Below are positions 18,437-52,216 of a stretch of 64,000 nucleotides of DNA, in pieces. The DNA is from Patescibacteria group bacterium (GTDB lineage Bacteria; Patescibacteriota; Minisyncoccia; UBA6257; 2-01-FULL-56-20): the NCBI GenBank assembly GCA_018971305.1, contig JAGXBC010000002.1:80046-144045 (forward strand). The letters run 5' to 3'. The notes under the pieces were generated by a model, which had not been told where the DNA came from, did no database searches, and was given only the letters and a program-made list of their open reading frames with translations. The stretch's first letter is position 1, and each line of letters begins with the position of its first letter. The position numbers were made by a program, and so were the translations under genes.

Positions 18437-18557
18437 ATCCCGTTAGAAACAGGTCGCGGTCACGACGGCTAGCACGAACCATAAAAATTCCGCAAAAATC
18501 TTGCTCATGAAACAAAGTTTTTATAGTCTATTGAGCAACCGCGGCTTCTAACGGGAT
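18437..18557. repeat. 12-bp perfect inverted repeat (ATCCCGTTAGAA / TTCTAACGGGAT), extendable to ~22 bp imperfect, enclosing ~95 nt of A/T-rich sequence just before the PAP2 gene start
   Basis: Read directly in the sequence; the distal arm overlaps the ATG at 18556. Confidence 0.5.
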
Positions 18558-19104: not shown

Positions 19105-19144
19105 CAAAACCGTTCCTATATATTGGAGCGGTTTTTTTCGTTTG

Positions 19145-19233
19145 CGGAGGCGAGAGGATTCGAACCTCTGTGGGGCTTTTTACACCCCGACGGTTTAGCA
19201 AACCGTTGCCTTAAGCCACTCGGCCACGCCTCC
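19145..19233 (-). tRNA. tRNA-Ser (anticodon GCT)
   Basis: Reverse-complement folds as GGAGGCG...acceptor, anticodon loop TTGCTAA, long variable arm, T-loop TTCGAAT. Confidence 0.8.
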
Positions 19234-19270
19234 ATAATTGAACAGAAATTGAACCAAACTTTTTTAAAGC

Positions 19271-19322
19271 CACCCACCGCCTTTGGCGGGGCCCCGCTTT
19301 AGCGGTGGTCGGCCACGCCTCC
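19271..19322. repeat. Nested GC-rich palindrome (CCACCGC...GCGGGGCCCCGC...GCGGTGG) followed by a 14-nt copy of the tRNA-Ser(GCT) 5' end (TCGGCCACGCCTCC)
   Basis: Direct reading; the 14-mer at 19309-19322 is identical to 19220-19233 inside the tRNA. Confidence 0.5.
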
Positions 19323-19385
19323 GTGATTATCAAAATATCAGAAAAACTTGTTAAAATCAACTTTTTTTGTTAACCTTTAGCCACT

Positions 19386-33960: not shown

Positions 33961-34032
33961 GCGCGCTTAGCTCAGTGGTAGAGCGTCACATTGACATTGT
34001 GAAGGCCGGAGGTCCGATCCCTCCAGCGCGCA
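33961..34032 (+). tRNA. tRNA-Val (anticodon GAC)
   Basis: Acceptor GCGCGCT/AGCGCGC, D-arm TAGCTCAGTGGTAGAGCG, anticodon loop TTGACAT, T-loop TCCGATC-like. Confidence 0.8.
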
Positions 34033-34135
34033 CACTCCAGTGATAGGTGTTTCAAGACCGTAAGATATGAGGTTCCTGGGCGTCCTTGAGCCTTGACCCT
34101 CTAGTACACTGAAACTCTATCACATGAAAATACCG

Positions 34136-35684: not shown

Positions 35685-37367
35685 ATGCGTAAAGATATAC
35701 AAGCAAAACTCAAGGGAATGCCGGAATTGCTCTCTATCAGCCAGGTAGCTGAGATTTTTAATATTCACCCTGATACTCTCCGGAACTGGGAAAAGGACGG
35801 TATTTTAGTGCCCTTGCGGGCTGGTAAGCGCGGCGATCGCAAATACCGTCCGCAGGACATTCAGGCCATCGTGGACAAGATGGGCAGCAAACTCACCCTG
35901 CCGCAGCTTGAGCAGTTTCTTTGGAAGAGCGCCGATATTCTTCGCGGCAAGATTGATAGTTCCGATTATAAAAAATATATATTCGGACTTCTTTTCTACA
36001 AGCGTATCAGCGACGTATGGGACGAGGAATATAAGCGCGTCATGGAGGAATACAAAGATGAGACTATCGCGCGGGCCGACTACAACCATCGTTTTCAAGT
36101 ACCGCCGGATTGCCGGTGGTCTGTTATTGAGGAACAGGCGGAAAATATCGGTCCGAAGCTTAACGGAATTTTTGATAAGCTCACGAATGCAAACAGCCCT
36201 AAACTGGACAAAATTTTTGATGATCTCGATTTCGCCCATAAAGATAAATTTCCGAACGAAACTACTCAGCGTTTAATAAACCACTTCTCGCAATATAATT
36301 TTGGCGACACTTACATCAACTCCGACCTTCTTGGAGATGCATATGAATATCTCATAAAGCAATTCGCGGCTGATGCCGGAAAGAAAGGTGGGGAGTTTTA
36401 CACCCCGCGCGAAGTTGAGCGTGTCATCATCCAAATTCTTAATCCCCACAAGAAAGACCACATATATGATCCCACGGTTGGGTCCGGTGGTTTTTTGCTC
36501 GAAGCCTACCATCACTTAAAAGAAAAAGAGGGCGAGAAAATTGCTCGCACGCTCTATCTATATGGGCAGGAGATAAATATCAGCACGTTTGCGATTGCCA
36601 AGATCAACATGTTCCTCCATGGACTTGATGCAGCTGATATTCAACGCGGCGATACACTTGCAAATCCCCAATTTCTGAATCCGAACGGAACATTAAAAAC
36701 CTTCGACATCTGCGTGGCAAATCCCCCCTATTCAATCAGTGACTGGGAAAATGAAATGTTCAAAGAACGGTATGGCCGAGTGGAGGGATATGAAATACCG
36801 CCAAAAAGTAATGCTGACTACGCTTTCGTACTCCACATCATTAAGTCCATGAACTCAAACGGCCGAGCTGGTATCGTGTTGCCGCACGGTGTTCTATTCC
36901 GTGCCGGTGCCGAGGGACGCATCCGAGAGCAAATACTCAAAAACGACCTTATTGAGGCGGTGATCGCACTTCCACCCAAGCTTTTCTATGGCACTGGTAT
37001 TCCGGCGGCCATTCTCATCTTCAATAAAAACAAGTCAGACAGTCACAGGGGAAATGTCCTTATCGTTGACGCCGAGAAGGATTTTTCTGAAGGTAAAAAC
37101 CAGAATTCGCTCCGCGCACAAGACATTCAGAAAATCGTGAAGGCGTATGACAGCTACAGAGATGTCGAGGGCTATGCCCGCGTTGTTAGCCTCAAAGAAG
37201 TCGAGAAGAATGAATATAACCTCAACGTGCACCGATACATAGAAAATGGCGATAAAGAGGAGGAAATAGACGTATCTGTTGTTCGTAAGGAACTTACTGC
37301 GCTCGAGAAGGAACGCGCTGAGGCCGATATAAAAGTCGATGAATTTTTGAATGAGCTTAAATATTGA
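35685..37367 (+). CDS. hsdM: Type I restriction-modification system, methyltransferase subunit HsdM
   Basis: N-terminal HsdM_N, AdoMet motif I DPTVGSGGFL, motif IV VANPPYS. Confidence 0.9.
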   Translation: MRKDIQAKLKGMPELLSISQVAEIFNIHPDTLRNWEKDGILVPLRAGKRGDRKYRPQDIQAIVDKMGSKLTLPQLEQFLWKSADILRGKIDSSDYKKYIFGLLFYKRISDVWDEEYKRVMEEYKDETIARADYNHRFQVPPDCRWSVIEEQAENIGPKLNGIFDKLTNANSPKLDKIFDDLDFAHKDKFPNETTQRLINHFSQYNFGDTYINSDLLGDAYEYLIKQFAADAGKKGGEFYTPREVERVIIQILNPHKKDHIYDPTVGSGGFLLEAYHHLKEKEGEKIARTLYLYGQEINISTFAIAKINMFLHGLDAADIQRGDTLANPQFLNPNGTLKTFDICVANPPYSISDWENEMFKERYGRVEGYEIPPKSNADYAFVLHIIKSMNSNGRAGIVLPHGVLFRAGAEGRIREQILKNDLIEAVIALPPKLFYGTGIPAAILIFNKNKSDSHRGNVLIVDAEKDFSEGKNQNSLRAQDIQKIVKAYDSYRDVEGYARVVSLKEVEKNEYNLNVHRYIENGDKEEEIDVSVVRKELTALEKERAEADIKVDEFLNELKY

Positions 37368-37368
37368 T

Positions 37369-38508
37369 ATGGAAACAGCGCAGAGGATAATTCCGAAAGA
37401 ATGGAGTATAAAAAAGGTTGAAGACCTTTTTGAAATAGGCCGCGGAAGAGTTATTAGTAAAAAAGAGATTCAACAAAACCCGGGACCATTCCCAGTATAC
37501 TCTTCTCAGACTTCAAACGGTGGGGAGTTCGGGAAAATAGGAACCTATGATTTTGAGGGGGAATATTTAACATGGACTACTGACGGCATTTATGCTGGGG
37601 CAGTATTTTATCGGAACGGTAAGTTTAACTGTACAAACGTTTGTGGAACCTTAAAACCAAGAGGGCATATTGATGCTCGATTTTTCTCTTACCTGCTGCC
37701 GTTGTACGCAGGGCGGCATGTCGTAAGAACCGCTAATCCAAAATTGATGAACAATGTCATGGCAAGGGTTTCAATACCAGTCCCGCCAATTAAGGAACAG
37801 AAGAAGATTTCAGAAATTTTAGTGGCGGTTGATCGGATAATTCGAGGCACGGACGAGATTATCGCCGTTACGGGGAAACTTAAGCGAGGGCTAATGCAGC
37901 ATTTTTTTGCCAAAAGCGAATGGAATAGAAAAAAGATTGCTGATATTGCAGAAGTTGTCACCGGTGGTACCCCAAAAACATCGGTCCCAGAATATTGGGA
38001 TGGTTCAATCCGATGGATGTCATCCGGCGAGGTTAATCTAAGACGGGTCAGGGATACGGAAAAAATGATCACACAGAAAGGATTTGATAATTCTAACGCG
38101 CGAATGTTACCTCTTGGGACGGTAATGGTTGCGTTGGCTGGTCAGGGGAAAACTCGAGGGAAGGTAGCAATATTAGAAATTGAGACTACGTGCAACCAAT
38201 CTCTTGCCGGGATTATTCCGAACGCGAATCTTTTATCGAATGAATTTCTCTTTTACAACCTCGAATATCGTTACCAAGAACTGAGAGATATTAGCGGCGG
38301 CGAAGGTCGCGCAGGATTAAATCTAAAACTGATCAAAGAGTTTGTGGTTCCAGTCCCGCCACTACAGGAGCAGAAAAAGATTGCAACAGCCCTGACGTCA
38401 ATCGACAAAAAGATTTCAATCAACCAGAAATTAAAAGCCGAGCTTAATCTTCTCAAAAAAGGTCTCATGCAAGATCTTTTGAGCGGAAAAGTACGGGTAA
38501 CCATCTAA
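37369..38508 (+). CDS. hsdS: Type I restriction-modification system, specificity subunit HsdS (two TRDs)
   Basis: Two target-recognition domains separated by the conserved central repeat; ATG at 37369 sits 1 nt after the hsdM stop (translational coupling). Confidence 0.8.
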   Translation: METAQRIIPKEWSIKKVEDLFEIGRGRVISKKEIQQNPGPFPVYSSQTSNGGEFGKIGTYDFEGEYLTWTTDGIYAGAVFYRNGKFNCTNVCGTLKPRGHIDARFFSYLLPLYAGRHVVRTANPKLMNNVMARVSIPVPPIKEQKKISEILVAVDRIIRGTDEIIAVTGKLKRGLMQHFFAKSEWNRKKIADIAEVVTGGTPKTSVPEYWDGSIRWMSSGEVNLRRVRDTEKMITQKGFDNSNARMLPLGTVMVALAGQGKTRGKVAILEIETTCNQSLAGIIPNANLLSNEFLFYNLEYRYQELRDISGGEGRAGLNLKLIKEFVVPVPPLQEQKKIATALTSIDKKISINQKLKAELNLLKKGLMQDLLSGKVRVTI

Positions 38509-38512
38509 AGAT

Positions 38513-39859
38513 ATGAAAGATAACGGCATCATAGAAAAAATATATGACATCGCGACTAGCCATTTCCACAAATGGTATGGTCTTCTTTCCGCGCTTCTTT
38601 TAGAGGCCATTGTCCTGCTTTTCGTTTATGGATTGGTGCCGAAAGGAGAAGTTCCTTTTGGATGGTATGTCATGGGGATGTCTGTCGTAGCAATTATTAT
38701 ATTGGCCGGCTGGGCGTTTTACGTTTGGCATTATCCAAAACGATCGAAGGATCGACTTGGAGTTGCGATTGCAGTTCAAATCGAAAACTCTGAAGACGCA
38801 AAGTTTTTTAAAAAGGACTTCCTTACCCCATTTAAGAGCAAAATTCATGAGTTGGATTTGCCATTTGATGTCTTAGTACTTAGAAACCACCAGTCGGAGA
38901 CAATTGAGACGATTGAAGATGCCAGGCATGTTTTAAAGAAGACGCGGGCGCATTTCTGCATTTGGGGTTCGATAAAAAAGAGGAGTGGCGCTCCCGCCGG
39001 AGAAAAATATCTATTTTCACTTCGTGGCATCGTTATACACCGGCCGATACAAGAGGTTCAAAAAGTGCTTCTTCGCAAAGAGTTCGATGCGCTTTTGCCC
39101 AATACTGTAATTTTTGAGGAAAACTTGGAGTTTCAGGCTTTTGAGTTCAGGGCAAACCAAGCTGTTACTGCCCTCGACTATATTACCGGACGAGCTGCTC
39201 TTTTGTCCGGCGATTTCAATACCGCAATTCGTTTACATGAATCTTTGCTTAAAGCCATAGAAAGCGGTCAATCTTTTCCGATCAGTGAGGACGCCCTTAA
39301 GAAACTGCTTTCCCTCGAATACGACCAGAAGGCTGGCTTTGAATTTTTTAACCCCCCTGCCGCAGGTACATATCAGGAAAGTATACGGAAATCGCTTCAA
39401 TACGATCAGAATAATTACGGTGCGCTTCTGAAGAGGGCAATCGTTGAATTTAATAACGGTAACGGTGATGCGCGCATCGCCATGAATACAATCAAGGAAG
39501 CTAAAAATCACGCAGGCGGTGGCTACCACTGGTTATACAGCAAGGCATTTTTACACTTCTGGCTTGAAGAATATAATGATGCACTCCAGTGCTGTGAAAA
39601 ATTGAAGGAAAAAAGTTATGGCGGCGAAGAAATTACCGTGGCGGAAGTAATCCTTTTTAACGAGAACCTACTAAAGACTTACGATAAACCGCAATTATAT
39701 TATTGGCTTGGCTTTGTAAGTATTGTGAAAAATAAAAATCTTTCTATAGCTGATAAATACTTTCAGCAATTTCTGGAACATGCGAATGATTCTACGAAAG
39801 ATCTTAAAACACGCGCCGAGAGTTATCTCTCGAGCATCAAAAAGGAAATCGGCTACTAA
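38513..39859 (+). CDS. Unknown 448-aa protein embedded between hsdS and hsdR: 2 N-terminal TM helices + cytoplasmic alpha/beta segment + C-terminal alpha-helical (TPR-like) repeats
   Basis: Starts 4 nt after the hsdS stop and ends 1 nt before the hsdR ATG; TM segments LLSALLLEAIVLLFVYGLV and WYVMGMSVVAIIILAGWAFYVW; no P-loop and no Rx4-6H HEPN motif seen. Confidence 0.6.
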   Translation: MKDNGIIEKIYDIATSHFHKWYGLLSALLLEAIVLLFVYGLVPKGEVPFGWYVMGMSVVAIIILAGWAFYVWHYPKRSKDRLGVAIAVQIENSEDAKFFKKDFLTPFKSKIHELDLPFDVLVLRNHQSETIETIEDARHVLKKTRAHFCIWGSIKKRSGAPAGEKYLFSLRGIVIHRPIQEVQKVLLRKEFDALLPNTVIFEENLEFQAFEFRANQAVTALDYITGRAALLSGDFNTAIRLHESLLKAIESGQSFPISEDALKKLLSLEYDQKAGFEFFNPPAAGTYQESIRKSLQYDQNNYGALLKRAIVEFNNGNGDARIAMNTIKEAKNHAGGGYHWLYSKAFLHFWLEEYNDALQCCEKLKEKSYGGEEITVAEVILFNENLLKTYDKPQLYYWLGFVSIVKNKNLSIADKYFQQFLEHANDSTKDLKTRAESYLSSIKKEIGY

Positions 39860-39860
39860 T

Positions 39861-42773
39861 ATGAAATTCAACGAACAACATACAATTGAAAATCACATCA
39901 TCAAGTTTCTCAAAGAGGAGCTTGGTTATGAATACATCAAACCACAGGAATTTGCGAAGCTGCGGGAATTTGAGAATGAGTATGTAATCGTTTCGTTACT
40001 TACTGCGGCCGTAAAGAAAATCAATGGAATTACCGATGAAACAGAAGCGCAAGCGGTGGTGCGCGAGATCAAAAAACTCGACTCGAATGAGGCATTTTTA
40101 AATGTCCTTCGAAACGGGGTTAACCTGAAGGACCCCGAAACCGGAAAGATGCGCGACTATTTTGTTGTTGATTATGGCAAACCCGAGGATAACCACTTCG
40201 TTGTTACGAACCAGTTTTATTTCGAGGGCAATTCAGAAAATATTCGCCCGGATGTGATGGTATTCCTAAACGGTTTGCCAGTGGTTGATATTGAGGCCAA
40301 GAGCCCAACTGTCTCAAGTAGCATTGATTACTCCAATGCCGTAGGTCAGATAAAACGATATGAGCGCAATGCATTTAAGCTTTTCTGGTCGAACTGTTTC
40401 AATATTGCTTCCGATGGCCTGAAGACCGTATACGGCGCTACCTACGCTCCGGCGGAATACTTCTTGCAGTGGCGAGAGGAAGAATTGGAGAAAAAATATG
40501 GCGAAGAGCTCGAGGTGACCCTCGCCGCACTTCTCTCGCATGATCGCCTGCTGGATATTATTGGGAACTTCATTCTCTTTGAGAAAGAGCAGGAAGGAGC
40601 CGTGAAGAAAATTACCCGTTACATGCAGTATCGGGCAACGAATAAGATTATTGAACGCGTCCAAAAAGGAGAAACGAAACGCGGCCTCATTTGGCATACA
40701 CAGGGGTCGGGCAAATCTTTTACGATGTTTTTCACTGCGTGGAAGTTGCGGTTTGACAAGAAACTCAAAAATCCGAAGGTTTTTGTATTAGTGGATAGGA
40801 TTGATCTTGATGACCAGCTCTATAACACGTTTCTCAATTGTGGCGGACAAAATGTAGTCCGGGTAGAGTCGCGGCGCGATCTTGAACGCAAAATCCAATC
40901 TCCGGAGCGTGGTATTTTCATTTCTACGATTCAAAAGTTTTCCGAGTTGGGAGATGAAGTAAAGAACCTCGATGAAAACATTATCGTGCTTTCGGATGAG
41001 GCGCACCGGGATAATGAAGGCATCTCGGCGATTAACCTACGCAGCGCCATGACGAACGCCTTCTTCTTCGGCTTTACTGGTACGCCGATTGATCGGGTAA
41101 CGCTCAACACGCACCGCAACTTCGGCGAGGAGGGAGAGCGCTATCTTGATTACTATTCTATCCAGCAAGCCATTGATGATGGCGCGACGTTGCCGGTTAC
41201 TTACGAAGCACGACTTTCTAAATTCTTTATTGACGAAGAAGAACTCGATAAACAGTTTGACGAGCTTACTGTGGGTTTGAATGAAAAAGAGAAAGACCGA
41301 ATTTCAAAGAAATATGGCAAGAAAGAAGCGATCATAAAGCTCGATAGGCGCATGGAGGCGATTGCTCGGGATATCGAGGAGCATTTCAAACTCTATGTTG
41401 AACCAGCTGGCTTCAAGGCGCAGATTGTTTGCTATGACCGCGAGGCAACTGCGAAGTATAAAAAACTGCTTGATCAGCTGGTCCCCAAAAATTGGTCCGA
41501 GGTCATCTACTCTCCCGGCGATGCTAACACCGATCCGGAAGAATTACGGACATATAATACGACGAAGGCGAAGCGTGAGAAGCTCATTAACGAGTTCAAG
41601 GATCCTAATAGCCCTCTGAAGTTCTTGCTCGTTTGCGACATGCTTTTGACTGGCTTTGATGCGCCAGTCGAGCAAGTGATGTATCTCGATAAACCACTTT
41701 GGGATCACAATTTGCTGCAAGCAATAGCACGTACAAACCGTATTTACCCGAATAAGGGAGCTGGCAAGATTATTGATTATTACGGCATTACCCGGAGTCT
41801 TTACAAGGCGTTGAACTTCGACGAGAGCATCGTGGATTCCGCGATGATTAATATCGACAAACTTAAGGAAGAATTCGGTGAGGTTTTGGGTGAGCTTAAG
41901 AACCTTTTTGTCGGTATCAATATCGAAGATCCATCCATTGAAAATCTTCGCCGCTGTCTCAAGATCTTTGCGGACAATATCGAAAAGCAGAAGTTCTTCC
42001 AAGAGAAATACGCACGTCTTAAACTCCTCTTTGAAGTCCTGGCACCGGACCCGTTCTTAAAAAAGCACATTCGCGCTTTCGAATGGTTCACAAGCGTATT
42101 CATCGCTTTCGAGAAAGAATATGGCATGAAGGAGTCCGATGCAGAGTTACTCGCGAAATATGGCGAAAAGGTAAAACAGCTTATCCAGCAACGGGTTGAC
42201 TACGAGGGCATCACCAAGAACTTCCGCGAGCTTAACGTGAACGATCTTTACGTGATGGAGCGGCTCAATAAGATGGATGACGATGAAAAGGCGCTCAATC
42301 TGGAGAAGATGTTGAAGCAGGAAATTTCGATCAACGTAGATACGAATCCGGCCTACAAGAAATTCAGCGAGCGGCTCTTGGCGATACGAAAGGAATTCGA
42401 ACAGCACCAGATTGACCTTGCCGAGCGCATTAAACGCTACCAAGAGCTTTTGTCGGATATAAAAAAGAAAGGAGACGAGGCGAAGGAGCTCGGTTTCACG
42501 CTCAAGGAATATGGCCTATTCGTTATTTCGGAGGAATTTATCGTCGACAGCGATAAAGCCGCAGTGCATGAGTTCATCAAGGAAATGACTGGCCGACTGG
42601 AAGAAATGCTTGACGAAGGTTGGCAGGAATCCTCCAAGCGAGAAGAATTTTTAAAGGAAGCCAAGAGGATCATTCAGGAGCTTGTGCTCAAAGAATACAA
42701 AGGGAAGATAAAGGTCAACGACTTCCACAAGTACTTGAATCGGCTGATTGATATCGTAATTAAGAAATTCTGA
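39861..42773 (+). CDS. hsdR: Type I restriction enzyme, restriction subunit HsdR
   Basis: N-terminal nuclease region (ENHIIKFLKEELGYEYI ... DVMVFLNGLPVVDIEAK = PD-(D/E)xK), helicase motif I HTQGSGKS, motif II DEAH-like LSDEAHR, long C-terminal region; start at the ATG at 39861. Confidence 0.9.
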   Translation: MKFNEQHTIENHIIKFLKEELGYEYIKPQEFAKLREFENEYVIVSLLTAAVKKINGITDETEAQAVVREIKKLDSNEAFLNVLRNGVNLKDPETGKMRDYFVVDYGKPEDNHFVVTNQFYFEGNSENIRPDVMVFLNGLPVVDIEAKSPTVSSSIDYSNAVGQIKRYERNAFKLFWSNCFNIASDGLKTVYGATYAPAEYFLQWREEELEKKYGEELEVTLAALLSHDRLLDIIGNFILFEKEQEGAVKKITRYMQYRATNKIIERVQKGETKRGLIWHTQGSGKSFTMFFTAWKLRFDKKLKNPKVFVLVDRIDLDDQLYNTFLNCGGQNVVRVESRRDLERKIQSPERGIFISTIQKFSELGDEVKNLDENIIVLSDEAHRDNEGISAINLRSAMTNAFFFGFTGTPIDRVTLNTHRNFGEEGERYLDYYSIQQAIDDGATLPVTYEARLSKFFIDEEELDKQFDELTVGLNEKEKDRISKKYGKKEAIIKLDRRMEAIARDIEEHFKLYVEPAGFKAQIVCYDREATAKYKKLLDQLVPKNWSEVIYSPGDANTDPEELRTYNTTKAKREKLINEFKDPNSPLKFLLVCDMLLTGFDAPVEQVMYLDKPLWDHNLLQAIARTNRIYPNKGAGKIIDYYGITRSLYKALNFDESIVDSAMINIDKLKEEFGEVLGELKNLFVGINIEDPSIENLRRCLKIFADNIEKQKFFQEKYARLKLLFEVLAPDPFLKKHIRAFEWFTSVFIAFEKEYGMKESDAELLAKYGEKVKQLIQQRVDYEGITKNFRELNVNDLYVMERLNKMDDDEKALNLEKMLKQEISINVDTNPAYKKFSERLLAIRKEFEQHQIDLAERIKRYQELLSDIKKKGDEAKELGFTLKEYGLFVISEEFIVDSDKAAVHEFIKEMTGRLEEMLDEGWQESSKREEFLKEAKRIIQELVLKEYKGKIKVNDFHKYLNRLIDIVIKKF

Positions 42774-42774
42774 A

Positions 42775-43344
42775 ATGCAAAAACAGATCGCATTGCAAAA
42801 TAAGAAAGTCGCTTACATCCTCCGAAAAAGCAAACGGGCCCGGAGGATGCGCCTTGCGGTGTATTGCGATGGATCTGTTGTGGTGACGATGCCACACGAT
42901 CTTCAGGAAACTATCGCTGAGCGATTTATTCGAGAAAAAACCGAATGGCTATTTTCAAAGTTGGCGTTTTTCAAGCAATTTGAGGGCAAGCCGGTTGCAC
43001 GATATAGTCATGACGATTATCTCAAGTATAAGGATGGCGCTCTTGCGCTTGTCCAAGATAAAGTTAATCACTTCACCAGCCAGCACGGATACCGATATAA
43101 CAAGATCGCGATTAAAAATCAGAAGACGTGCTGGGGCAGCTGCTCCCGAAAAGCCAATCTGAATTTTAACTATAAGATCTTGTTTTTGCCAGAAAACATT
43201 CAGAACTATATCGTTGCACACGAACTGTGCCACCTAAAAGAATTCAATCACTCGAAACAGTTTTGGAAATTAGTGGCAAATGTAATACCGGAATATATGG
43301 AGATTCGTAATCAGCTCAAAAAGAGCGGGGTAAGTTTTTATTAA
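42775..43344 (+). CDS. DUF45/YgjP-like (SprT/WLM-like) zinc metallohydrolase
   Basis: YILRKSKRARRMRLAV..., WGSCS, and HELCHLKEFNHSKQFW (HExxH...NHS) typical of COG1451; begins 1 nt after the hsdR stop. Confidence 0.75.
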   Translation: MQKQIALQNKKVAYILRKSKRARRMRLAVYCDGSVVVTMPHDLQETIAERFIREKTEWLFSKLAFFKQFEGKPVARYSHDDYLKYKDGALALVQDKVNHFTSQHGYRYNKIAIKNQKTCWGSCSRKANLNFNYKILFLPENIQNYIVAHELCHLKEFNHSKQFWKLVANVIPEYMEIRNQLKKSGVSFY

Positions 43345-43376: not shown

Positions 43377-45914
43377 ATGGATAGCAGAACCCCATTTATA
43401 AAAGAAGTCGCGAAAACCATCGCGGAAAACCATGCTAAGGGCAGCGAATCTTTTATATTTGGCATCTCCGGCAAATGGGGTGAAGGGAAAACTTACTTTT
43501 TGCACGATCTCAAAAAAGAACTCAAATCTCGTGATAGCTCTTTCGAGATTTTTGACGTAAATGCATGGAAATTCTCTGCTGATAATATTTCTTTCCTTAG
43601 AAATTTCTTAAAAGCTCTCTATCAAAAAAGCGACTTTTGGACAGAAGACGATTTCCGATCATTATATTTTGACACTTCAGAAAGTGGTATTCATTGGAAA
43701 AGATTTGCAACTCTTGTTCTGGTATTGGGCGCTGCTGGCTGGGTCTATTCGCAGCCCGAAGTTTCTAGCTTTATAAACGGCCTCGCTCCGCAATGGAAGA
43801 TCATATCGTCGTTAATTTTGATCCCAACATTGCTTGCTGCTGTGGGTAAAATCGTGATTATTCAAAAGAGTGATCATGCGATTTCAACACTCGACAAATT
43901 CGATGACCTCTTAAAAAGGATAATCGCGCAGTTTAATATTGAGCAGAAAAAAGTAGTGGTATTTGTTGATGACCTTGATCGAGTAACTCCTGAGGTGGCG
44001 AGGGACGTCTTAGATAATCTCAGAACATTTTTCGACAAAAAGGAGCTTACTTTTGTCGTGACCGGAGATCATACTGTTTTAGAAAGATATCTTGGCAAAG
44101 ATCTTCTCCCGGACGAAGATGTACCGACACAGCTCGAAGAAGGGCGCAGATTCTTAAAAAAGATATTCAACGTTTATTGGCGCTTGCCGCTTCCTATAGA
44201 AAACGAGGTGGCAGTCTTCGTTGAAAACGAGTTTACTAAACGCTCCTCTGCCTTAAACGAAATGCTCACCGAAGAAGAGGATAGAAACAAATTCAAAAAT
44301 TATCTAAAAAAGTATTTTGAAAAAAACTTCCGGCAAATAATTAGATTCTTGGACACCACGCTTTTTAATTTTCAAATCATAAAACAGAAAGTGTCGGATG
44401 GCGACGATACACAAAAGCGATATTTTGAGGAAGTTGCAAAACATCCCTTGCTGATAATACGCATCTTAATGATTCAAGAATTATGTGCGCCTTTATTCGA
44501 AAAAATACTCAATGAGCCACAAATCTTAAGCGATTTAGAATACGCTGTCGATAAAAAGGATTCTGCCAAAGTAAATCAAATTGTGGACGATCATAAAAAA
44601 TATCTTTCTGACGCTCAACAGGGCTTCATAAAGAAATTTCTTTATGAAGAACCACGTTTTTACGAAGGGACGAACCTGACAGTGTCCGATCTTCGTCCGT
44701 TTCTTTTCTTAGCTGCGGATGCTAGCTTTGGTGACCAACGGGGACCGTCTAGTGACGATTTTATGATTATCGTTGATGGCGGAGATCCAGCGCAGGTCAA
44801 AAGTTCACTGGTGTCTATCGGCGAAACTAAAGCAAGGGCAGGAGCCAAAGCATTTATTACCCAATTAACTAGTCTGGCAGAACCAGCAAAAACCAATCAC
44901 ATTAAAACCTTAGTCATTGCGCTCGGGGATTTACCACCAGAATATGTGATGCACAAGATTTTTGCCGAAGAGCTGGCATCTGTGGATCTAAGCTCTACAA
45001 ATACTACCGCATCGGCAAATAAGTTAGGAGCATTTAATGCGTTTTGGGCATGGTTAGACATAGTCAAAGATGCAAGTTTACTAGCGTCATATCAAGATAA
45101 ATTTCCCTTTACAAGTGCCTCAGAGATTGATGCTATCAAAATTGATAAAGCCGGAGTATTTACTAGCAGCGTTGCTACGCGTTGGCTTAAAACTTACTAC
45201 TCTCAAGATACCCAGGACGCCGTAAACAAGATGTTGAGTATTTTCCCGAAGCTTGATCTTCCAGAAGTACACAAGCATATGGCGGGAATGGAAGAAGCAT
45301 TAGCAAATGAATTGATACGCGACGCCAATGCAGAATGGAGGGAAAAGCGATTTAGTCTAATAAAGGACTTTACTCCGGAAGGCAAAAAAGTGTTACGCCA
45401 AAAAATATTTGAACAAGCCTCAGCGTTAAATAAAGATATTGTACGGTGGGCAATCGGCAAATCCGGTGATCTATGGGAAACAACAGAAGTCGAGACTGCA
45501 GTACTTGAAAAGCTGGAAACGGCTCAAAACTTTAACGATATAGCGACTGCGCTTAGGTTTATCGTTGATAATAAAATTAGCTCACCAGAATTACTCTGGC
45601 CGAAAGTAATTCCTAAACATGCCACGCTATTAATCGATAATTTGCCACAAATGATCAACGAATCGTATCAAGCCATTTCGCCATCAGAAGAATACGCAAG
45701 CCAGATTATGGATCCCCTGATTCAAAAAATAAAGGGGCTCGGTGAGGCGGAGCAAATCCAGTGGCTTGATTATATAAAAAAGCCGAAATGGCTTTGGGCA
45801 AAAATTACTAAAAAACCGTCCGTTAGGAAATTTGCTGCTATCCAAAAATCTACTAACGATCAGCTCAAACAAGCTCTTACCGACTCTTTGGCAAGCTGGG
45901 ATGAATCGGCTTAA
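43377..45914 (+). CDS. KAP family P-loop NTPase (845 aa)
   Basis: Walker A GISGKWGEGKTYFL (KAP GxWGxGKT), two TM helices inserted after it (LVLVLGAAGWVYS / ILIPTLLAAVGKIVII), Walker B VVVFVDDLDR (KAP hhhhDDLDR); long helical C-terminal region. Confidence 0.8.
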   Translation: MDSRTPFIKEVAKTIAENHAKGSESFIFGISGKWGEGKTYFLHDLKKELKSRDSSFEIFDVNAWKFSADNISFLRNFLKALYQKSDFWTEDDFRSLYFDTSESGIHWKRFATLVLVLGAAGWVYSQPEVSSFINGLAPQWKIISSLILIPTLLAAVGKIVIIQKSDHAISTLDKFDDLLKRIIAQFNIEQKKVVVFVDDLDRVTPEVARDVLDNLRTFFDKKELTFVVTGDHTVLERYLGKDLLPDEDVPTQLEEGRRFLKKIFNVYWRLPLPIENEVAVFVENEFTKRSSALNEMLTEEEDRNKFKNYLKKYFEKNFRQIIRFLDTTLFNFQIIKQKVSDGDDTQKRYFEEVAKHPLLIIRILMIQELCAPLFEKILNEPQILSDLEYAVDKKDSAKVNQIVDDHKKYLSDAQQGFIKKFLYEEPRFYEGTNLTVSDLRPFLFLAADASFGDQRGPSSDDFMIIVDGGDPAQVKSSLVSIGETKARAGAKAFITQLTSLAEPAKTNHIKTLVIALGDLPPEYVMHKIFAEELASVDLSSTNTTASANKLGAFNAFWAWLDIVKDASLLASYQDKFPFTSASEIDAIKIDKAGVFTSSVATRWLKTYYSQDTQDAVNKMLSIFPKLDLPEVHKHMAGMEEALANELIRDANAEWREKRFSLIKDFTPEGKKVLRQKIFEQASALNKDIVRWAIGKSGDLWETTEVETAVLEKLETAQNFNDIATALRFIVDNKISSPELLWPKVIPKHATLLIDNLPQMINESYQAISPSEEYASQIMDPLIQKIKGLGEAEQIQWLDYIKKPKWLWAKITKKPSVRKFAAIQKSTNDQLKQALTDSLASWDESA

Positions 45915-45966: not shown

Positions 45967-46701
45967 TTATCCTAATACTGCTCGCTCCCTTCTTTTAAGT
46001 TCCTTCATGATAAAACCCGAATTAATCGGCTTCCTGAAAAGAAAACATTGGGGTCGGTTTTTCTCGGGAACAACATAATCGACAAGACTTTTCCCATGAG
46101 GTAAACCGCAGTGCACTTGGTGAACGAATTCTTTTCCATACTTCGGATCATTAAAATCGCAGTAATACAAAATTTCGTCGGTACTCAACTGAAAACAATG
46201 AGAGTTGCCGTGTCCGAAAAAGTAAACTTCTTTGATGTTTTGGTTGCTCATTATTTTCTCTACATCGGAAATATTTGAGTCGGGATAGAATGAAAAATTT
46301 TGCTGCTTAGCCTCTAAGAGTTTTACCAAACCCTTTATTTCGCGCTTGAGAAAAATTGGCTTGACCCACCCTTCAAGAGTGAACCAATTCGAGTGTCCGA
46401 GAACGACGACCGCTTCGGTGGGCGCGTTTTGACTAAATTTCTTCAAATATTTCCTTACAAAAATATTTTGGAGTGGCCAAAGCACCAAAAATATTGGAGA
46501 GAAGAAAAACATCAGAAATTCTTGGCCAAAATAAACGATTCCCACGATCAGCACGAAGAACAGATGAACAAAGAGAACCGGCAACAGGTGACCCGTTCTT
46601 ATCCATGCATAAACGAGCACGCTCACGTAGGCGAAAAATAAGGGCAGCTTAAATTCAAGCCTTTGAATTGTCTTTCCGAACTTGCTTTCCGGTAATAGCA
46701 T
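45967..46701 (-). CDS. Hypothetical membrane protein (3 N-terminal TM helices + C-terminal globular domain with GHSNW / GHGNSH His-rich motifs)
   Basis: Convergent with the KAP NTPase; no confident family assignment (not a canonical GxSxG hydrolase). Confidence 0.45.
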   Translation of the reverse strand: MLLPESKFGKTIQRLEFKLPLFFAYVSVLVYAWIRTGHLLPVLFVHLFFVLIVGIVYFGQEFLMFFFSPIFLVLWPLQNIFVRKYLKKFSQNAPTEAVVVLGHSNWFTLEGWVKPIFLKREIKGLVKLLEAKQQNFSFYPDSNISDVEKIMSNQNIKEVYFFGHGNSHCFQLSTDEILYYCDFNDPKYGKEFVHQVHCGLPHGKSLVDYVVPEKNRPQCFLFRKPINSGFIMKELKRRERAVLG

Positions 46702-46835
46702 GTATGTTTCAGGAGCATAATTCAGTGTTTGTAAAAAATCAATCTATTGAACTGGGAAGGTTTTTGACCATCTTTTTTCACCCACCGTGATGCAGCGGGT
46801 TTTTTGTGTTTCGCAAAAATAAATCAACAACTACC

Positions 46836-48695
46836 ATGAACAATACAAAAGAAGGGCTGTTGGAAAATAAACCGACGGCCCTGCAACAAAAACTAGAACC
46901 CCAGAATCGCTATTGCCTCTACGCAAGGAAATCATCGGAGAGCGAGGAACGTCAGGCGCTATCCATCGACTCGCAGGTCAAAGAAATGTATAAGATCGCG
47001 GAACGCGATCATCTCCTGGTAATCGAAGTGCTGACTGAATCTCACTCCGCAAAAAGCACCGCCCAGCGTCCGGTGTTCAATCAGATGGTCGAGAACGTCA
47101 AGAACGGAAAGTACGACGCAATTCTCACGTGGGCGCCGGATCGTCTGAGCCGCAACGCGGGCGATCTGGGGCAGCTCGTCGATCTCATGGATAACGGTCG
47201 GCTCTCGGAGATCCGCACCTACGGCCAGCTCTTTAAGAACTCGCCGAACGAAAAATTCCTGCTCATGATTCTTTGCAGCCAAGCGAAACTCGAGAACGAC
47301 AACAAGGCGGAAAACGTGAAGCGTGGCCTCCGGGCAGCTTGTGAGCGCGGCTGGCGTCCTTGCGTACCGCCTATTGGTTATATGAGCGGAAACCGCAAGG
47401 ATCGCCCCGGGGAAGTTTTTCTCGATAAGGCGCGTGCGCCGATCTTAAGACTGTGCTTTGAGAAGGCCGCTGAGGGATGGTCGTCAAGGAGAATCGTGGT
47501 TTGGCTTCGCAGCATCAACTTCACAACCCCAAGCGGCGCGTATATGCCGTTGAGCGGCATACAGAAAATGCTCGCGAGCACCTATTATTACGGCATGTTC
47601 GAATATCCGGTGGGCAGCGGTAAATGGTACAAGGGCCATCATAAAGCCTTGATCACGAAGGATCTCTTCGATCGCGCACGAGCGCAGATTGACAGCCGCC
47701 GCACGGCGCGGCGAACTGAGCGGAAATCGTTTGGCTTTACCAAATTTTTGCATTGCGGCTTTTGCGGGTCCAACGTAACGGCAGAAGAACACTACAAAAA
47801 CCTGAAGGATGGATCTCAATCACGCTATATCTATTACGGATGTAATCGCACAAAAGGATTGACGTGTCCTAATGTATATATCCGCGAAGAGTTACTCGTG
47901 AAACAGCTCGCCAATATCATTGATCAAATATCGCTCGATGAACTGGGCATACGCAATCTCCTCGGCAACGAAACGGAACGGATGATGAGCTTCCATAATC
48001 AAGTGATGGGTATTCCGCGCGAGGCGATGACGCCGGAACAGAAAGATGTGGACATCAGGGAATACGCCAAGTATCTTCTCGCGAGGGGCAATATGGAAGA
48101 GAAGCGGATACTCCTCTGCAACCTCAAAAGCCGCCTCGTGCTACGGAACAGAGTAATATTTCTCGAAGAAGCAGACGGCATCTCATGGAAGGAATACTTC
48201 GGGCATCTGCGAAAGTGCCCCGAGTGCGGATCGAAGAACATCAATGAAAGCGGATCGCACGCGCATTGGAAATTCGGCGACGCGCCGATCGATGACACGC
48301 CACGCGTCATTTATTTCACCTGCATGGATTGCGAACGCTCTTGGAAGCAGGTCAACGAAGGCGACCTCCGGCTTTTGCGTGTCTACACCGTCGCGCTCGA
48401 GAAAAACGGAGCATGGATCAAGACGCCCGGCGAATCGGAGATTTTTGTCACGTCTACTTTTGTAGCCCGTTTTAGCGATCCAGTGGAATCCAGTGGGAAA
48501 AAGATACGGCCGAAACATATTCTGGGAGCAATGTCCTATGACGCCTACAAGAACGCTTATAAAACTACGATCGAATACGATGACGGAAGTGAACAGACAT
48601 TCGACATTCCGAGTCTTCGCGGACTTAAGAACCCAGGGGAAGGCATGAAGCCGATCGGCAACAAAGATGGCCTGATGGAATACGAAGAAAAATAG
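46836..48695 (+). CDS. Large serine recombinase (integrase-type, 620 aa), paralog of the 34181-35521 recombinase
   Basis: YARKSSESEERQALSIDSQ / DRLSRNAGDLG closely parallel the first recombinase; C-terminal Zn ribbon CPECGSK...CMDCERSW and long extension. The track ORF starts at GTG 46806; ATG at 46836 preferred. Confidence 0.85.
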   Translation: MNNTKEGLLENKPTALQQKLEPQNRYCLYARKSSESEERQALSIDSQVKEMYKIAERDHLLVIEVLTESHSAKSTAQRPVFNQMVENVKNGKYDAILTWAPDRLSRNAGDLGQLVDLMDNGRLSEIRTYGQLFKNSPNEKFLLMILCSQAKLENDNKAENVKRGLRAACERGWRPCVPPIGYMSGNRKDRPGEVFLDKARAPILRLCFEKAAEGWSSRRIVVWLRSINFTTPSGAYMPLSGIQKMLASTYYYGMFEYPVGSGKWYKGHHKALITKDLFDRARAQIDSRRTARRTERKSFGFTKFLHCGFCGSNVTAEEHYKNLKDGSQSRYIYYGCNRTKGLTCPNVYIREELLVKQLANIIDQISLDELGIRNLLGNETERMMSFHNQVMGIPREAMTPEQKDVDIREYAKYLLARGNMEEKRILLCNLKSRLVLRNRVIFLEEADGISWKEYFGHLRKCPECGSKNINESGSHAHWKFGDAPIDDTPRVIYFTCMDCERSWKQVNEGDLRLLRVYTVALEKNGAWIKTPGESEIFVTSTFVARFSDPVESSGKKIRPKHILGAMSYDAYKNAYKTTIEYDDGSEQTFDIPSLRGLKNPGEGMKPIGNKDGLMEYEEK

Positions 48696-48863: not shown

Positions 48864-50351
48864 CTACACCCAGCAACTCCCGCCGTTGCTCTCCACCCAG
48901 TTTTTCCAGGTATCCCATGCCCGGTCGTTTTCTAGCCCTCCAATGGCATCAATAACCGCCATACTGAAGGCATCGGCAAGGTCATCGTGGTTTTCGATGC
49001 CGAATCCCGTAAGTTGAGAAATGAGTTCTTCCGCGCCGTGGCGTGGGAAAACAATTGTGCCGTTCTGGATAAGTTCTCCGGTAAGAGCCAGCCGCGATCT
49101 CTTATCCCCGGTATTCTTGATGCCTTCAACATTGCAGCCAGCTTCATTTACCGCCTGCACATAAATTTCTTGGAAGCCGTTCGATTCAACGATGAATTTT
49201 GGGCGTATATTCCCCGTTTTGAAATATTTGTCCATCGCCCGCATAGTACGCACCGCCTCCGGAAACGAAACCCGTTCATTGAAAGGGTTCGGAATGACGT
49301 ACAATCGCATATCATTCCCGTGGCCATATCTTTTTATTCCCACCATGGCCGTATAGTCGGCGCCGTCTCTTTGTGAGATTGCAAGATCGACGCCGATATG
49401 GACGTCTCGGCATTCAGTCGTAGGAAGTTCGTCATAATGTTTGATCCACTCCGGGAAGACCACCCGCGTATTGTCGGAAACGATATTCAAAAGATACTCC
49501 TGCTGCCAGGCGATCTCGTTTGCGACGCTATGCCGTAACTCATCGATTTTCTCTTTCGTATCGAACTTGCCCGGCCAGAGGCAGTCGCCGTGTTCGTCGA
49601 GAAGCGGGAACCATAAATAGACACCCCGCAATTCCTTCTCGAATATTTTCCGTTTCAACCGCATCATGAGTGAATCTTCGTGCAAAAGATTTCCCACGAT
49701 CACGATTCGTGTGCCAATGTCGCCCAAGGGTACCACTTCGCGTGTGAACCAATCGAATATCTTGTTTCGGCCCTCCAGCGTTTTCGTAGAGTTGATATCC
49801 TCAATATCGTCCAAGATGAGAAGGTCAGGGCGATGCTCGTAGTGGCGGAGGCCTCGGATACTCTGGTCGATAGAAGCGATCATGATTCTCGCCCCTGTAT
49901 TCTGGAATACGATCGAGGACATGGCCCACTCTCCGGCTGACTCCACGCGAAAAGGGCCGAGGTCGCTTTTGAGGAGCGGGTTGTTCTCTAGCTCTCGGCG
50001 AAGGTTTGCCATATGTTGCCGTGCCTGCGCCTGGGTTTGGCAAATGATAAGGACGAACTTCTTTTTCTGCACGCCGAGGATCGCCCACAACGCATACGAC
50101 AAAGTAATCAGGGTAGATTTGCCGCTGCCTCGAAACGCCACGATGCAAGCCAATCTATTCGACATATCCTCTGTGATTCGAAAAATATCTTTCTGAAATT
50201 CGGCTACCGGGTACTTGATGTAATGCGCGAGATAAACCGAAAAGAAGAGGAGATGGCTTTCGCGGGCAACTGCCTGACGCACGGCGCGGTCGTTCGCGAT
50301 TGCCTCAAGTAAATTATTTTGATTGTTCGTTGTCTGTTCCATGATTTTCAA
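48864..50351 (-). CDS. Phage terminase large subunit
   Basis: Walker A AFRGSGKST, Walker B LLILDDIED, C-terminal RNaseH-like nuclease region; 495 aa. Confidence 0.8.
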   Translation of the reverse strand: MKIMEQTTNNQNNLLEAIANDRAVRQAVARESHLLFFSVYLAHYIKYPVAEFQKDIFRITEDMSNRLACIVAFRGSGKSTLITLSYALWAILGVQKKKFVLIICQTQAQARQHMANLRRELENNPLLKSDLGPFRVESAGEWAMSSIVFQNTGARIMIASIDQSIRGLRHYEHRPDLLILDDIEDINSTKTLEGRNKIFDWFTREVVPLGDIGTRIVIVGNLLHEDSLMMRLKRKIFEKELRGVYLWFPLLDEHGDCLWPGKFDTKEKIDELRHSVANEIAWQQEYLLNIVSDNTRVVFPEWIKHYDELPTTECRDVHIGVDLAISQRDGADYTAMVGIKRYGHGNDMRLYVIPNPFNERVSFPEAVRTMRAMDKYFKTGNIRPKFIVESNGFQEIYVQAVNEAGCNVEGIKNTGDKRSRLALTGELIQNGTIVFPRHGAEELISQLTGFGIENHDDLADAFSMAVIDAIGGLENDRAWDTWKNWVESNGGSCWV

Positions 50352-50763
50352 GATTTATGTTTGCAAGTTCAAGAGCTTTTCGCACCAACTCCTTTTGTTC
50401 AGGAGAAAGTTCTTGGATCGTATTTATGGTTCCCTCGATCTCAAGTTTTGGAGCGTACTTTGGATGGTGATGCCGGAGCCAGAGTTGTACAGCGGGAAAA
50501 TGCTTGTCGCGGACGAGAGAGATGAGTTGGGATTCAGACATGTCGGTAATCAAAGCCTCGCCTTCGGCGATTGCTTTTTCTGCATCCTTCAGAAATTCTT
50601 TGTCCTCGTCCCGCCAGTTGTAGTACGTGGAACGGGAAAGTTGCGCCCGTTCAAGCGCGACCTGCAGAATCGGCATTTTGCGGAATTGATCGAGCAAAGA
50701 TGCCTTGTCTTTTGCCATCCGTTCCGCAATCGCCTTGTTCCAATTTTCCCGAGTATCACTCAT
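50314..50763 (-). CDS. HTH protein, putative terminase small subunit
   Basis: HTH-like QLSRSTYYNWRDEDKEF; overlaps the terminase large-subunit start by 38 nt; assignment by context. Confidence 0.45.
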   Translation of the reverse strand: MSDTRENWNKAIAERMAKDKASLLDQFRKMPILQVALERAQLSRSTYYNWRDEDKEFLKDAEKAIAEGEALITDMSESQLISLVRDKHFPAVQLWLRHHHPKYAPKLEIEGTINTIQELSPEQKELVRKALELANINLENHGTDNEQSK

Positions 50764-52090
50764 TGATCTTCGTGGCTTTGAGGCCCGTTAGTTTCTCGAA
50801 TCGACGCTTGATGACTTCGGCATAGACCGGAGATTTCTCCATGAGACGGCACCGGCGCTTCATCTTCTCGCAGGCGATAAGTGTCGATCCGCTTCCGCCG
50901 AAGGGCTCGATAACGATATCGTCCCGTTTCGTGAGTACTTTGAGGTACGGAATGAGAATCTGAATGGGCTTCGTACCGAAGATGATTCCTTGGCCGGACG
51001 ATTTTTCATCTGCCGCAACATACTCGATGAAATCGGTCGGGCAGATTTTCTTGCCCTTTTCGTACCCTTCCCACTGTGGCTTGCCGGAGGTGGCATAGAG
51101 AGCATTCTCGTATTCCTCTTGGAAAAGAGAATCGGATTCTGGCTCAAGGTTCAACGCAACCTCGCCTTGTGTACCAACGACCGCAATGTCGTTCTTGTTG
51201 AAGAATTTGTACTTCGCCGCAAATCCTTGCACGCGATTCGGCAGGTGCCAGGCGATCGTGTTGCGGTACTTCCAGTGTTTCTCGAGCGCATTCCAAATCG
51301 TGCGGAGATTTTTCGGATGCTCGAAGATGATGATCGAGAAATCCGGTTTCTGGATCTTCGCCACATTCGCCATCCAAAGATCGGAGAAGTTTTCCGGCAA
51401 CTCATCGGTTTCGAGGTATTTGCGATCACGCTTCAAGCCGAAGCCTTCTGTGGCTTTTCCATTCCGCTTCTTGCCATGAAGATAATCCAGGATATACGGA
51501 GGATCGGTGAAACACATGTCCGCTTTTTTCTCGCCCATCAGTTTCAGAACATCGGCCTCGACCGTGGAATCACCGCACATCAATCGGTGCTCGCCCAACT
51601 GCCATAGATCTCCTTTCTGCGTTTCTATTTTCCCGATCTGCAATTTCTGTAATTCTTTCGCGAGATCGAATTCTTCGGGATGTTCGTCGATGCCAAAAAT
51701 CTCATCCATTTCTTCCGACGAGAAGCCGACATCTTTCAGGAATTCCTCGCTGAAGTTCGCGAGCAGGTCCCAATCAAACTCTCCGGTATTTTTGTTGAGT
51801 CGGATATTCAACTCTTGTTCCTGCTTTATGTCTGGAATATTGATGTAGACCGCAGGCACCCTCTCCATCCCGAGTTCCTTCAGAACTTCGAGGCGGAAAT
51901 GGCCTCCGATCACGACGTTTTCTCGACCTGGGGCGCAGTTGACCACAAGCGGATCAACGACCCCGAAGCGGCTGATTGATTCTTTGAGCTGGTCCGCGGC
52001 CGCTTTGTCGTGTTTGCGCGGATTGTACTCAGCAGGCTTCAGGCCTGCGGCTGGCACATACTCGATGTGCAATGGCATGGTGTTTTTCAT
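50756..52090 (-). CDS. ParB/Srx-like nuclease domain fused to a DNA N6/N4 methyltransferase (phage-type)
   Basis: N-terminal ParB-like segment (PLHIEYVPAAGLKPAEYNPRKHD...), C-terminal MTase with DPPY (CFTDPPYILDY) and SAM-binding segment EPFGGSGST. An internal ATG (MKNTMPLH) is preferred over the longer track ORF ending at 52147. Confidence 0.75.
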   Translation of the reverse strand: MKNTMPLHIEYVPAAGLKPAEYNPRKHDKAAADQLKESISRFGVVDPLVVNCAPGRENVVIGGHFRLEVLKELGMERVPAVYINIPDIKQEQELNIRLNKNTGEFDWDLLANFSEEFLKDVGFSSEEMDEIFGIDEHPEEFDLAKELQKLQIGKIETQKGDLWQLGEHRLMCGDSTVEADVLKLMGEKKADMCFTDPPYILDYLHGKKRNGKATEGFGLKRDRKYLETDELPENFSDLWMANVAKIQKPDFSIIIFEHPKNLRTIWNALEKHWKYRNTIAWHLPNRVQGFAAKYKFFNKNDIAVVGTQGEVALNLEPESDSLFQEEYENALYATSGKPQWEGYEKGKKICPTDFIEYVAADEKSSGQGIIFGTKPIQILIPYLKVLTKRDDIVIEPFGGSGSTLIACEKMKRRCRLMEKSPVYAEVIKRRFEKLTGLKATKINE

Positions 52091-52216
52091 GCTTTTAATT
52101 AGTTTATTTTTCGACTTTTTTGTAGGCAACGAAAAACGCCCAGACACGCATCCGTACCCTTGTACAGATGAATGTCTGGGCGTTCCAGACGATGCTCGAT
52201 TCAGTTGTTAACTGCC

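Follow-up and report, generated by a model that had tools for sequence, protein, structure and literature searches.

Why does a gene for a KAP-family P-loop NTPase stand at the end of a type I restriction-modification (RM) string in a Patescibacteria genome, and does it belong to that string at all? The locus lies in a 64,000-nucleotide stretch of DNA (the window: contig JAGXBC010000002.1 of assembly GCA_018971305.1, positions 80,046 to 144,045 of the forward strand), taken from a Patescibacteria metagenome-assembled genome, and the gene at 43377-45914 of the window encodes a protein identical to the KAP product KGJ89_04305. A first-pass annotation, made from the sequence alone, had suggested that it could be the sensor or switch NTPase of a defence module. 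We find that KAP turns up repeatedly in Patescibacteria on a small island beside a tRNA gene. These islands combine a recombinase of the serine or tyrosine type with a TerS-like/ParB-methyltransferase pair and, in some cases, TerL, and the slot directly upstream of KAP is a cargo hotspot that has independently captured several restriction types. A type I RM system fills that slot in the window, and KAP therefore sits last in its string. By analogy with characterized defence proteins, the KAP protein is most likely an autonomous, membrane-anchored P-loop NTPase that works as a one-protein sensor-effector against phage or in superinfection exclusion, a reading to which we give a probability of roughly 0.6.

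The gene and the parts of its product on which this reading draws are:

43377..45914, plus strand: KAP-family P-loop NTPase gene of a subfamily of ~850 amino acids specific to the Candidate Phyla Radiation (CPR); 845 amino acids, ATG start, Pfam PF07693 at E 3.2e-34
43470..43493, plus strand: Walker A, GKWGEGKT, residues 32-39, read off the translation
43695..43856, plus strand: hydrophobic helical hairpin, residues ~107-160, a predicted membrane anchor between Walker A and Walker B (hydropathy, AlphaFold2)
43953..43982, plus strand: Walker B, VVVFVDDLDR, residues 193-202, read off the translation
44757..45911, plus strand: all-alpha C-terminal solenoid, residues 461-845, the proposed sensor, private to the subfamily (AlphaFold2, Foldseek)

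The start of the open reading frame is sound, because homologs align from residue 1 with 100% coverage. PF07693 (KAP_NTPase) is matched with 119 bits against a cutoff of 20, residues 4-337 falling on positions 1-281 of the 293-position profile, and in a 29-sequence alignment G32, W34, G35, G37 and K38 of Walker A and D198, D199, L200, D201 and R202 of Walker B are invariant. By every sequence criterion testable here the window protein is a KAP-family member, and the motif hallmarks of the family, a GxWGxGK[ST] Walker A (G32-KWGEGKT39) and an hhhhDDLDR Walker B (V193-VVFVDDLDR202), are both in place, as the first-pass annotation had said. The 2004 description of the family reportedly has two (or four) transmembrane helices that interrupt the NTPase domain after Walker A and before Walker B. 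Such an insertion is predicted here: the AlphaFold2 model (mean predicted local distance difference test score, pLDDT, 82.6) has a helical hairpin, residues 107-124 and 138-157, between the strands 100-105 and 160-165 of the P-loop core, residues 142-160 are strongly hydrophobic (Kyte-Doolittle 2.18, 19-residue window), and most of 28 homologs have a pair of hydrophobic segments in the stretch from Walker A to Walker B, the segment equivalent to residues ~109-125 rising above the 1.6 threshold in most of them. The earlier claim of two transmembrane helices within the NTPase domain stands for the hairpin as a whole and for its strong second segment, but the first segment is marginal in the window protein itself. 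We predict that the hairpin serves as a membrane anchor. The long helical C-terminal region that had also been proposed is evident in the model, where residues ~460-845 are wholly alpha-helical with a pLDDT of ~90; the best solved-structure match found by Foldseek is RdrA (E 1.5e-5), with ARM/HEAT proteins next, and both the helical part of RdrA and the ARM/HEAT proteins match at low TM-score (template-modelling score).

This protein belongs to a subfamily that comes almost wholly from Patescibacteria and is patchily distributed. Among 5.8 billion proteins, 225 full-length homologs were identified; among the 120 listed, lengths run from 658 to 956 amino acids (mostly ~850) and identities from 30 to 62%, and nearly all of the named ones come from CPR lineages. 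When the solenoid alone was searched against 1.84 billion representatives, all 63 matches had the same KAP architecture or were fragments of it; the solenoid is found in no other architecture and is therefore a domain private to the subfamily. At 50% identity the subfamily falls into 63 clusters, and only ~10 of its loci occur among 185,579 species (one genome each). Mean pairwise identity is 45% over residues 1-460 (45-53% in the NTPase core), 22% in the hairpin insert, the lowest conservation anywhere in the N-terminal half, and 24% in the solenoid. By this measure the NTPase core evolves at about half the rate of the C-terminus and the hairpin. The best viral match of the KAP protein is a giant-virus KAP protein; the cultivated phage genomes of INPHARED hold no member of the subfamily, only a distant Salmonella KAP match. 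Of the 2-kb bins of the window, the one with the lowest G+C content (0.406) is where KAP sits.

The surroundings of the gene are those of a mobile element. An island extends from ~34.1 to ~52.6 kb of the window, with the following parts:

33961..34033, plus strand: tRNA-Val, left border of the island (ARAGORN)
34181..35521, minus strand: large serine recombinase 1, divergent from the string of cargo and KAP (Pfam Resolvase, Recombinase and Zn_ribbon_recom)
35685..43344, plus strand: type I RM cassette, directly upstream of KAP and on the same strand (Pfam and PADLOC matches)
45967..46701, minus strand: 244-amino-acid convergent membrane protein with a putative caspase-like His/Cys domain (AlphaFold2, Foldseek)
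46806..48695, plus strand: large serine recombinase 2 (629 amino acids), divergent from the membrane protein (Pfam)
48864..52147, minus strand: island backbone (PHROG and Pfam matches), consisting of the next three genes
48864-50351, minus strand: TerL
50314-50763, minus strand: TerS-like
50756-52147, minus strand: ParB_N-N6_N4 methyltransferase
from 52696: two-component system, right border of the island

To the left of the island, beyond tRNA-Val, lie relA/spoT, topA and dprA. No direct repeats of 11 nucleotides or more link the island borders and internal junctions, so the exact ends of the island are undefined. This layout recurs, with variations, among the 20 subfamily loci that we examined, the window included:

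L172 (IMG/VR viral contig): serine recombinase (minus), KAP (plus), a 222-amino-acid gene, TerL (minus), TerS-like (minus), ParB-methyltransferase (minus)
L082: serine recombinase (minus), KAP (plus), a 201-amino-acid gene, a 151-amino-acid gene (minus), ParB-methyltransferase (minus)
L092: serine recombinase (minus), KAP (plus), with Dam and GmrSD downstream
L005: ParB-methyltransferase (minus), KAP (plus)
L195 (KAP at 32% identity): serine recombinase (minus), cargo, a 138-amino-acid gene (minus) with an N6_N4 (ParB-type) methyltransferase (minus), KAP (plus)
L083: serine recombinase (minus), cargo, a small gene (minus) with a ParB-type methyltransferase (minus), KAP (plus)
L084, L086 and L087: ParB, TerS, TerL, a gene of ~150 amino acids, tyrosine integrase, cargo, KAP

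The viral contig L172 matches the layout of the window except that it lacks the RM string, the second recombinase and the membrane protein, and its ParB-methyltransferase is 72% identical to that of the window. Recombinase 2 and the membrane protein are probably a separate insertion of recombinase plus cargo between KAP and TerL, because both are absent from this otherwise collinear backbone. Recombinase 1 is 61% identical to the recombinase adjoining KAP in L002. Several islands are bordered by tRNA genes (Gln four times, Thr, Val), the commonest neighbours of KAP are a recombinase (10 of the 20 loci) and a ParB-type methyltransferase (7 of the 20), and blastp comparisons among the loci revealed no small gene that consistently flanks KAP on its left or its right. 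No capsid or portal genes were seen in the islands. The island of the window looks like a small, capsid-less phage-like element, and the island family may be phage-satellite-like.

The cargo varies from locus to locus. In L082, L092 and L172 nothing occupies the slot that separates recombinase and KAP; in L195 it holds non-RM cargo and in the window a type I RM system. The cargo by KAP spans many systems:

window and L001: type I RM
L002: EcoRI-type methylase and GmrSD_N-HNH
L086: N6_N4 methylase and ResIII helicase
L087: C5 methylase, HinP1I and Vsr
L095 and L083: SNF2 helicase and giant Eco57I-like methylase
L195, 5147-8122, in the recombinase-KAP slot: GHKL (HATPase_c_3) ATPase and a helix-turn-helix protein

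The restriction classes next to subfamily KAP genes (I, II, III-like, SNF2 plus methylase, GmrSD) are found in about half of the 20 loci. Even the type I systems, which flank KAP in 2 of the 20 loci, are not the same system: HsdR and HsdM of L001 are only ~31% identical to those of the window, against 51% for KAP, and the L001 system is built around an HsdM-HsdS fusion, with neither the YgjP-like gene nor the 448-amino-acid insert of the window cassette. Because of this divergence and the differing architecture, we take the two insertions to be independent. The first-pass annotation had called for a survey of KAP neighbourhoods for enrichment near RM and defence genes, and such an association is what a probe census found for this subfamily, with RM-type genes within 6 kb of KAP in 9/20 subfamily loci against 4/113 loci of other KAP NTPases and recombinases near KAP in 10/20 against 7/113, although the probes were drawn from the subfamily loci, so that the contrast is inflated and indicative only. 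A lack of any link to defence islands, which that annotation had named as grounds for refutation, is thus not what the subfamily shows.

Defence by proteins of this general build has recently been demonstrated. The first-pass annotation described prokaryotic KAP NTPases as poorly characterized, which is now dated: work of 2025-26 has shown that Enterococcus is protected against phage by KAP NTPases whose C-terminal regions are of unknown type, and that Walker B and the C-terminal region are both required (PMC13552941). Like the window protein, these are products of single genes with a transmembrane helix in the NTPase domain and a long C-terminal region that holds no known domain, and like the window KAP they are encoded next to serine recombinases on mobile DNA. 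They differ in that theirs are small serine recombinases in Firmicutes and gut bacteria, whereas the subfamily described here goes with large serine or tyrosine recombinases in Patescibacteria; the solenoid, moreover, was met only within its own subfamily in the search described above. The window protein is best filed as a CPR-specific addition to the recently validated KAP NTPases with an unknown C-terminal region, and its novelty at the level of the gene is modest. The island family with its restriction-capturing slot would be the more original aspect, as a working hypothesis.

How might such a protein act? The best mechanistic template, by analogy, is Tmn, a P-loop NTPase with an inserted transmembrane hairpin and solenoid arms that bind a phage protein, upon which ATP turnover rises, Mg2+ is exported and the cytoplasm collapses in plasmolysis (PMC13001434). 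Tmn is a decamer with two transmembrane helices in its P-loop domain and solenoid-like arms in the cytosol, and it is carried in mobile-element defence hotspots. Its authors assign it to another NTPase family (YobI), and the likeness is one of architecture rather than of demonstrated homology; no Tmn/YobI family appears among the Pfam and PADLOC matches at E <= 0.01, the presence of such a model in those libraries being unchecked. Because of the analogy with EF_KAP-type KAP NTPases, PifA and Tmn, we propose that an oligomer would be held in the membrane by the hairpins inserted after Walker A, that the fast-evolving cytosolic solenoid (residues 461-845) would bind a phage protein, and that this binding would alter NTP turnover. 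The membrane-embedded part might then disturb ion or nucleotide homeostasis, or membrane integrity, such that phage replication stops.

Several named systems resemble the window protein in part, and none of them is it. PifA of the F plasmid, which excludes T7, is the best PADLOC match (E 3.8e-21) and lies over the KAP NTPase domain, but only positions 26-324 of its 720-position profile align (query residues 9-339) and the C-terminal halves are unrelated; the homology is confined to the NTPase domain, and we reject the identification. From work of the Molineux laboratory, PifA is said to be a single-gene, mobile-element-borne defence at the membrane, much as we read the window KAP. It differs in having been reported without transmembrane helices (PMC13001434), whereas the window protein has a predicted hairpin insert. 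QatA of QatABCD matches the NTPase domain with E 9e-15 in PADLOC and 2e-15 in NCBIfam, but the score of 56.4 bits is far below the NCBIfam cutoff of 600, and QatB, QatC (QueC-like) and QatD (TatD-like) are not found nearby, so this identity too was rejected. The PADLOC candidate PDC-S20 matches residues 13-398 with E 2e-16, its profiles spanning ~450-464 positions that do not include a solenoid. RdrA of the RADAR system, a ring-forming defence ATPase, shares with the window protein a helical C-terminal part and has an hmmsearch match around Walker B (E 7e-4); unlike the window KAP it has no transmembrane hairpin, and with a TM-score of only 0.17-0.19 and no RdrB adenosine deaminase in the locus we do not regard the window protein as RdrA. 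Nor is it a STAND NTPase: the match to nSTAND_NTPase5 reaches 22.9 bits, short of the cutoff of 34, and covers the Walker B region only.

Several points weigh against the reading of KAP as a single-protein defence NTPase. Its function in this subfamily, as for CPR organisms generally, would rest on analogy. The first hydrophobic segment of the window protein (FATLVLVLGAAGWVYS, residues ~109-125) is under the usual threshold. The Foldseek structural matches are weak, with a TM-score of ~0.18 that we attribute to the multi-domain model. Neither Pfam nor Foldseek finds a recognizable effector domain in the protein, which makes the killing or blocking step pure analogy. The census contrast is, as stated, inflated by its probes. 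In six loci an RM cassette closely precedes KAP on its strand, overlapping or no more than 32 nucleotides away, which leaves room for real functional coupling. And a role of KAP in the element's own service would account just as well for its constant synteny with the backbone of the island.

The last two of these points lead to different explanations of the gene. PrrC shows what coupling might look like: this anticodon nuclease is an additional defence gene product expressed from inside the type I RM cluster EcoprrI, and its cognate RM system keeps it physically silent. KAP could be such a second-line guard that responds when the RM system is inhibited or overwhelmed, or its task could be to hold restriction complexes at the membrane or to regulate them there. 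RM or restriction-like modules do lie directly upstream of KAP in the window, L001, L002, L086 and L095, where they share its direction and show overlaps or very small gaps, and nearby in L087, L083 and L092; no terminator-like site stands between hsdR-YgjP and KAP in the window; and the original description of KAP NTPases is reported to have suggested that they belong to membrane-associated complexes for the restriction of foreign DNA (PMC13552941). Against coupling, the RM systems beside it are mechanistically unrelated, which makes a specific interface with all of them unlikely, the two type I systems are non-orthologous, and at least seven loci with visible flanks (L082, L084, L172, L195, L004, L005 and L094) have KAP with no adjacent RM genes. 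We consider that KAP is not a dedicated RM subunit, because the adjoining RM types are unrelated and the remaining loci have none; unlike PrrC, the subfamily accompanies many RM classes or none, and a dedicated partnership of the PrrC kind is not supported. Coupling to the upstream system appears improbable to us, and any cooperation between KAP and RM would be a layered defence through co-expression, not a physical RM subunit. For the proposed switch of a defence module this means that the defence and mobile-element context holds, while the idea of KAP as a part or a switch of the RM operon does not hold up.

A different possibility is that KAP is a core gene of the island's own life cycle, sensing a helper phage for excision or packaging, or playing a membrane role in DNA transfer. 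KAP stays beside the recombinase, the TerS-like gene and the ParB-methyltransferase as its own identity falls from 62% to 32%, in serine- and in tyrosine-recombinase islands, and the islands have TerL and TerS and no capsid genes that we saw, as in phage satellites. But in L001 KAP follows a type I RM system, and blastp with a small set of labelled proteins detected no recombinase, TerL or ParB-methyltransferase up to 10 kb away (only four open reading frames of the locus being scanned with Pfam), and KAP diverges faster than the backbone around it: 39% against 72% for the ParB-methyltransferase in L172, and 41% against 67% in L005. The prokaryotic KAP NTPases with experimental data are also all defence proteins, and we judge a life-cycle role to be unlikely. 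Much less probable still, to the point that we give it little weight, is that KAP is an ordinary host housekeeping NTPase of membrane signalling that stands beside RM genes by coincidence. Eukaryotic KAP NTPases are membrane scaffolds (Kidins220/ARMS), and the effector domain that one might look for in a defence protein is not visible here. A housekeeping gene is hard to reconcile with the patchy distribution, with the lowest G+C content in the window, with a position between two recombinases beside a tRNA gene, or with the recurrent defence and mobile-element neighbours. The single-protein defence NTPase therefore remains our preferred reading. A bolder proposal, which we hold to be doubtful, is that KAP marks an undescribed family of small, terminase-bearing, capsid-less integrative elements in Patescibacteria (which would be the first phage-satellite-like ones in the CPR), in which the promoter-proximal slot before KAP captures restriction systems and KAP is a co-expressed guard that fires when they are bypassed.

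Having placed KAP on mobile islands, one might ask what such a gene would bring to its hosts. Patescibacteria have tiny genomes and for the most part are not known to carry CRISPR, and their phage resistance has so far largely been inferred from counts of RM genes. If the preferred reading were confirmed, a membrane NTPase of ~850 amino acids that recurs on mobile islands, next to a landing site for restriction systems, would add a second, membrane-level layer of defence in these organisms, and the validated class of KAP-NTPase defences would extend to an uncultivated superphylum. The trio of recombinase, KAP and ParB-methyltransferase could also be used as bait for CPR defence cargo, in parallel to the published approach that uses recombinases as bait (PMC13552941).

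The string of genes in front of KAP in the window is composed as follows:

35685-37367, plus strand: hsdM with an N-terminal MerR-type helix-turn-helix (Pfam/PADLOC)
37351-38508, plus strand: hsdS (Pfam/PADLOC)
38513-39859, plus strand: 448-amino-acid gene with transmembrane and TPR-like parts, wedged between hsdS and hsdR
39780-42773, plus strand: hsdR (Pfam/PADLOC)
42775-43344, plus strand: YgjP-like metallopeptidase (Pfam/PADLOC)

From hsdM to KAP the spacing ranges from overlaps to gaps of 32 nucleotides, KAP being the last gene with a 32-nucleotide gap before it, and the scan placed no plus-strand terminator-like site between hsdS and the KAP stop codon. The description of KAP as the terminal gene of an RM operon is right as to position and strand, while co-transcription is an inference: for KAP with at least hsdR-YgjP it is plausible and reasonable, but it is no result. 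The best promoter-like match of the region (TTTACA-16-TATAAT, 11/12) lies at 39550-39577 on the plus strand, within the 3' end of the 448-amino-acid gene and just before hsdR, and the string may consist of two transcription units, hsdM-hsdS-448-amino-acid gene and hsdR-YgjP-KAP. The promoter and terminator scans gave 28 and 19 sites against 22.4 and 16.9 in shuffled sequence, which is no excess, and the transcription units are not settled by them. The DNA-binding domain of HsdM (MerR/HTH_17) occupies residues ~15-64 and is also present in the non-orthologous HsdM-HsdS fusion of L001 (4467-6962); it may act as an internal regulator of the transcription of the RM string.

The 448-amino-acid protein has two N-terminal transmembrane helices and a TPR-like helical body, and its gene follows a 4-nucleotide gap and overlaps the hsdR open reading frame. 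Fifty CPR homologs are 44-80% identical to it. We considered it as an RM subunit and rejected this, as homologs at 66% and 50% identity (L193 and L194) stand alone among housekeeping genes; the gene looks like a self-contained insert.

On the other side of KAP, the convergent open reading frame at 45967-46701 on the minus strand is real, and it does carry the transmembrane helices and His-rich motifs ascribed to it by the first-pass annotation. The protein combines N-terminal transmembrane helices with an alpha/beta domain, carries the motifs GHGNSH and HQVHCGLPHG, and belongs to a family of at least 132 proteins that are 45-74% identical; it has no match in Pfam, PADLOC, PHROG or NCBIfam. Its AlphaFold2 model (pLDDT 90.4) finds its best Foldseek matches in SAVED-CHAT, caspase-3, gingipain and legumain, all of them weak (best E 0.015, TM-score 0.3-0.4). 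His163 (FFGHG) and Cys197 (QVHCG) are invariant and lie at the ends of two strands, putatively the catalytic-dyad positions of a caspase fold, and the model suggests a membrane-anchored, mini-caspase-like protease. As a partner of KAP, however, this protein was rejected: none of its homologs occurs in the first 80 KAP loci, and its own homologs occur with no KAP nearby. It is an independent cargo gene, whose KAP-less homologs lie in defence-type neighbourhoods with Fic, SocA/Panacea, type II RM, DUF4145 and LexA-S24. The C-terminal extension of recombinase 2, its divergent neighbour, has a weak match to a Lar-like zinc ribbon (E 7e-4).

Farther downstream of KAP, various loci of the subfamily hold Shedu, AbiEi, an AAA_16-hydrolase, a VWA/MoxR system or a diversity-generating retroelement. 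In L087 a VWA and MoxR-like AAA_5 pair stands with a diversity-generating retroelement (bAvd and reverse transcriptase) at 12964-20685, and in L083 a Shedu (SduA_C) gene lies at 14822-16018.

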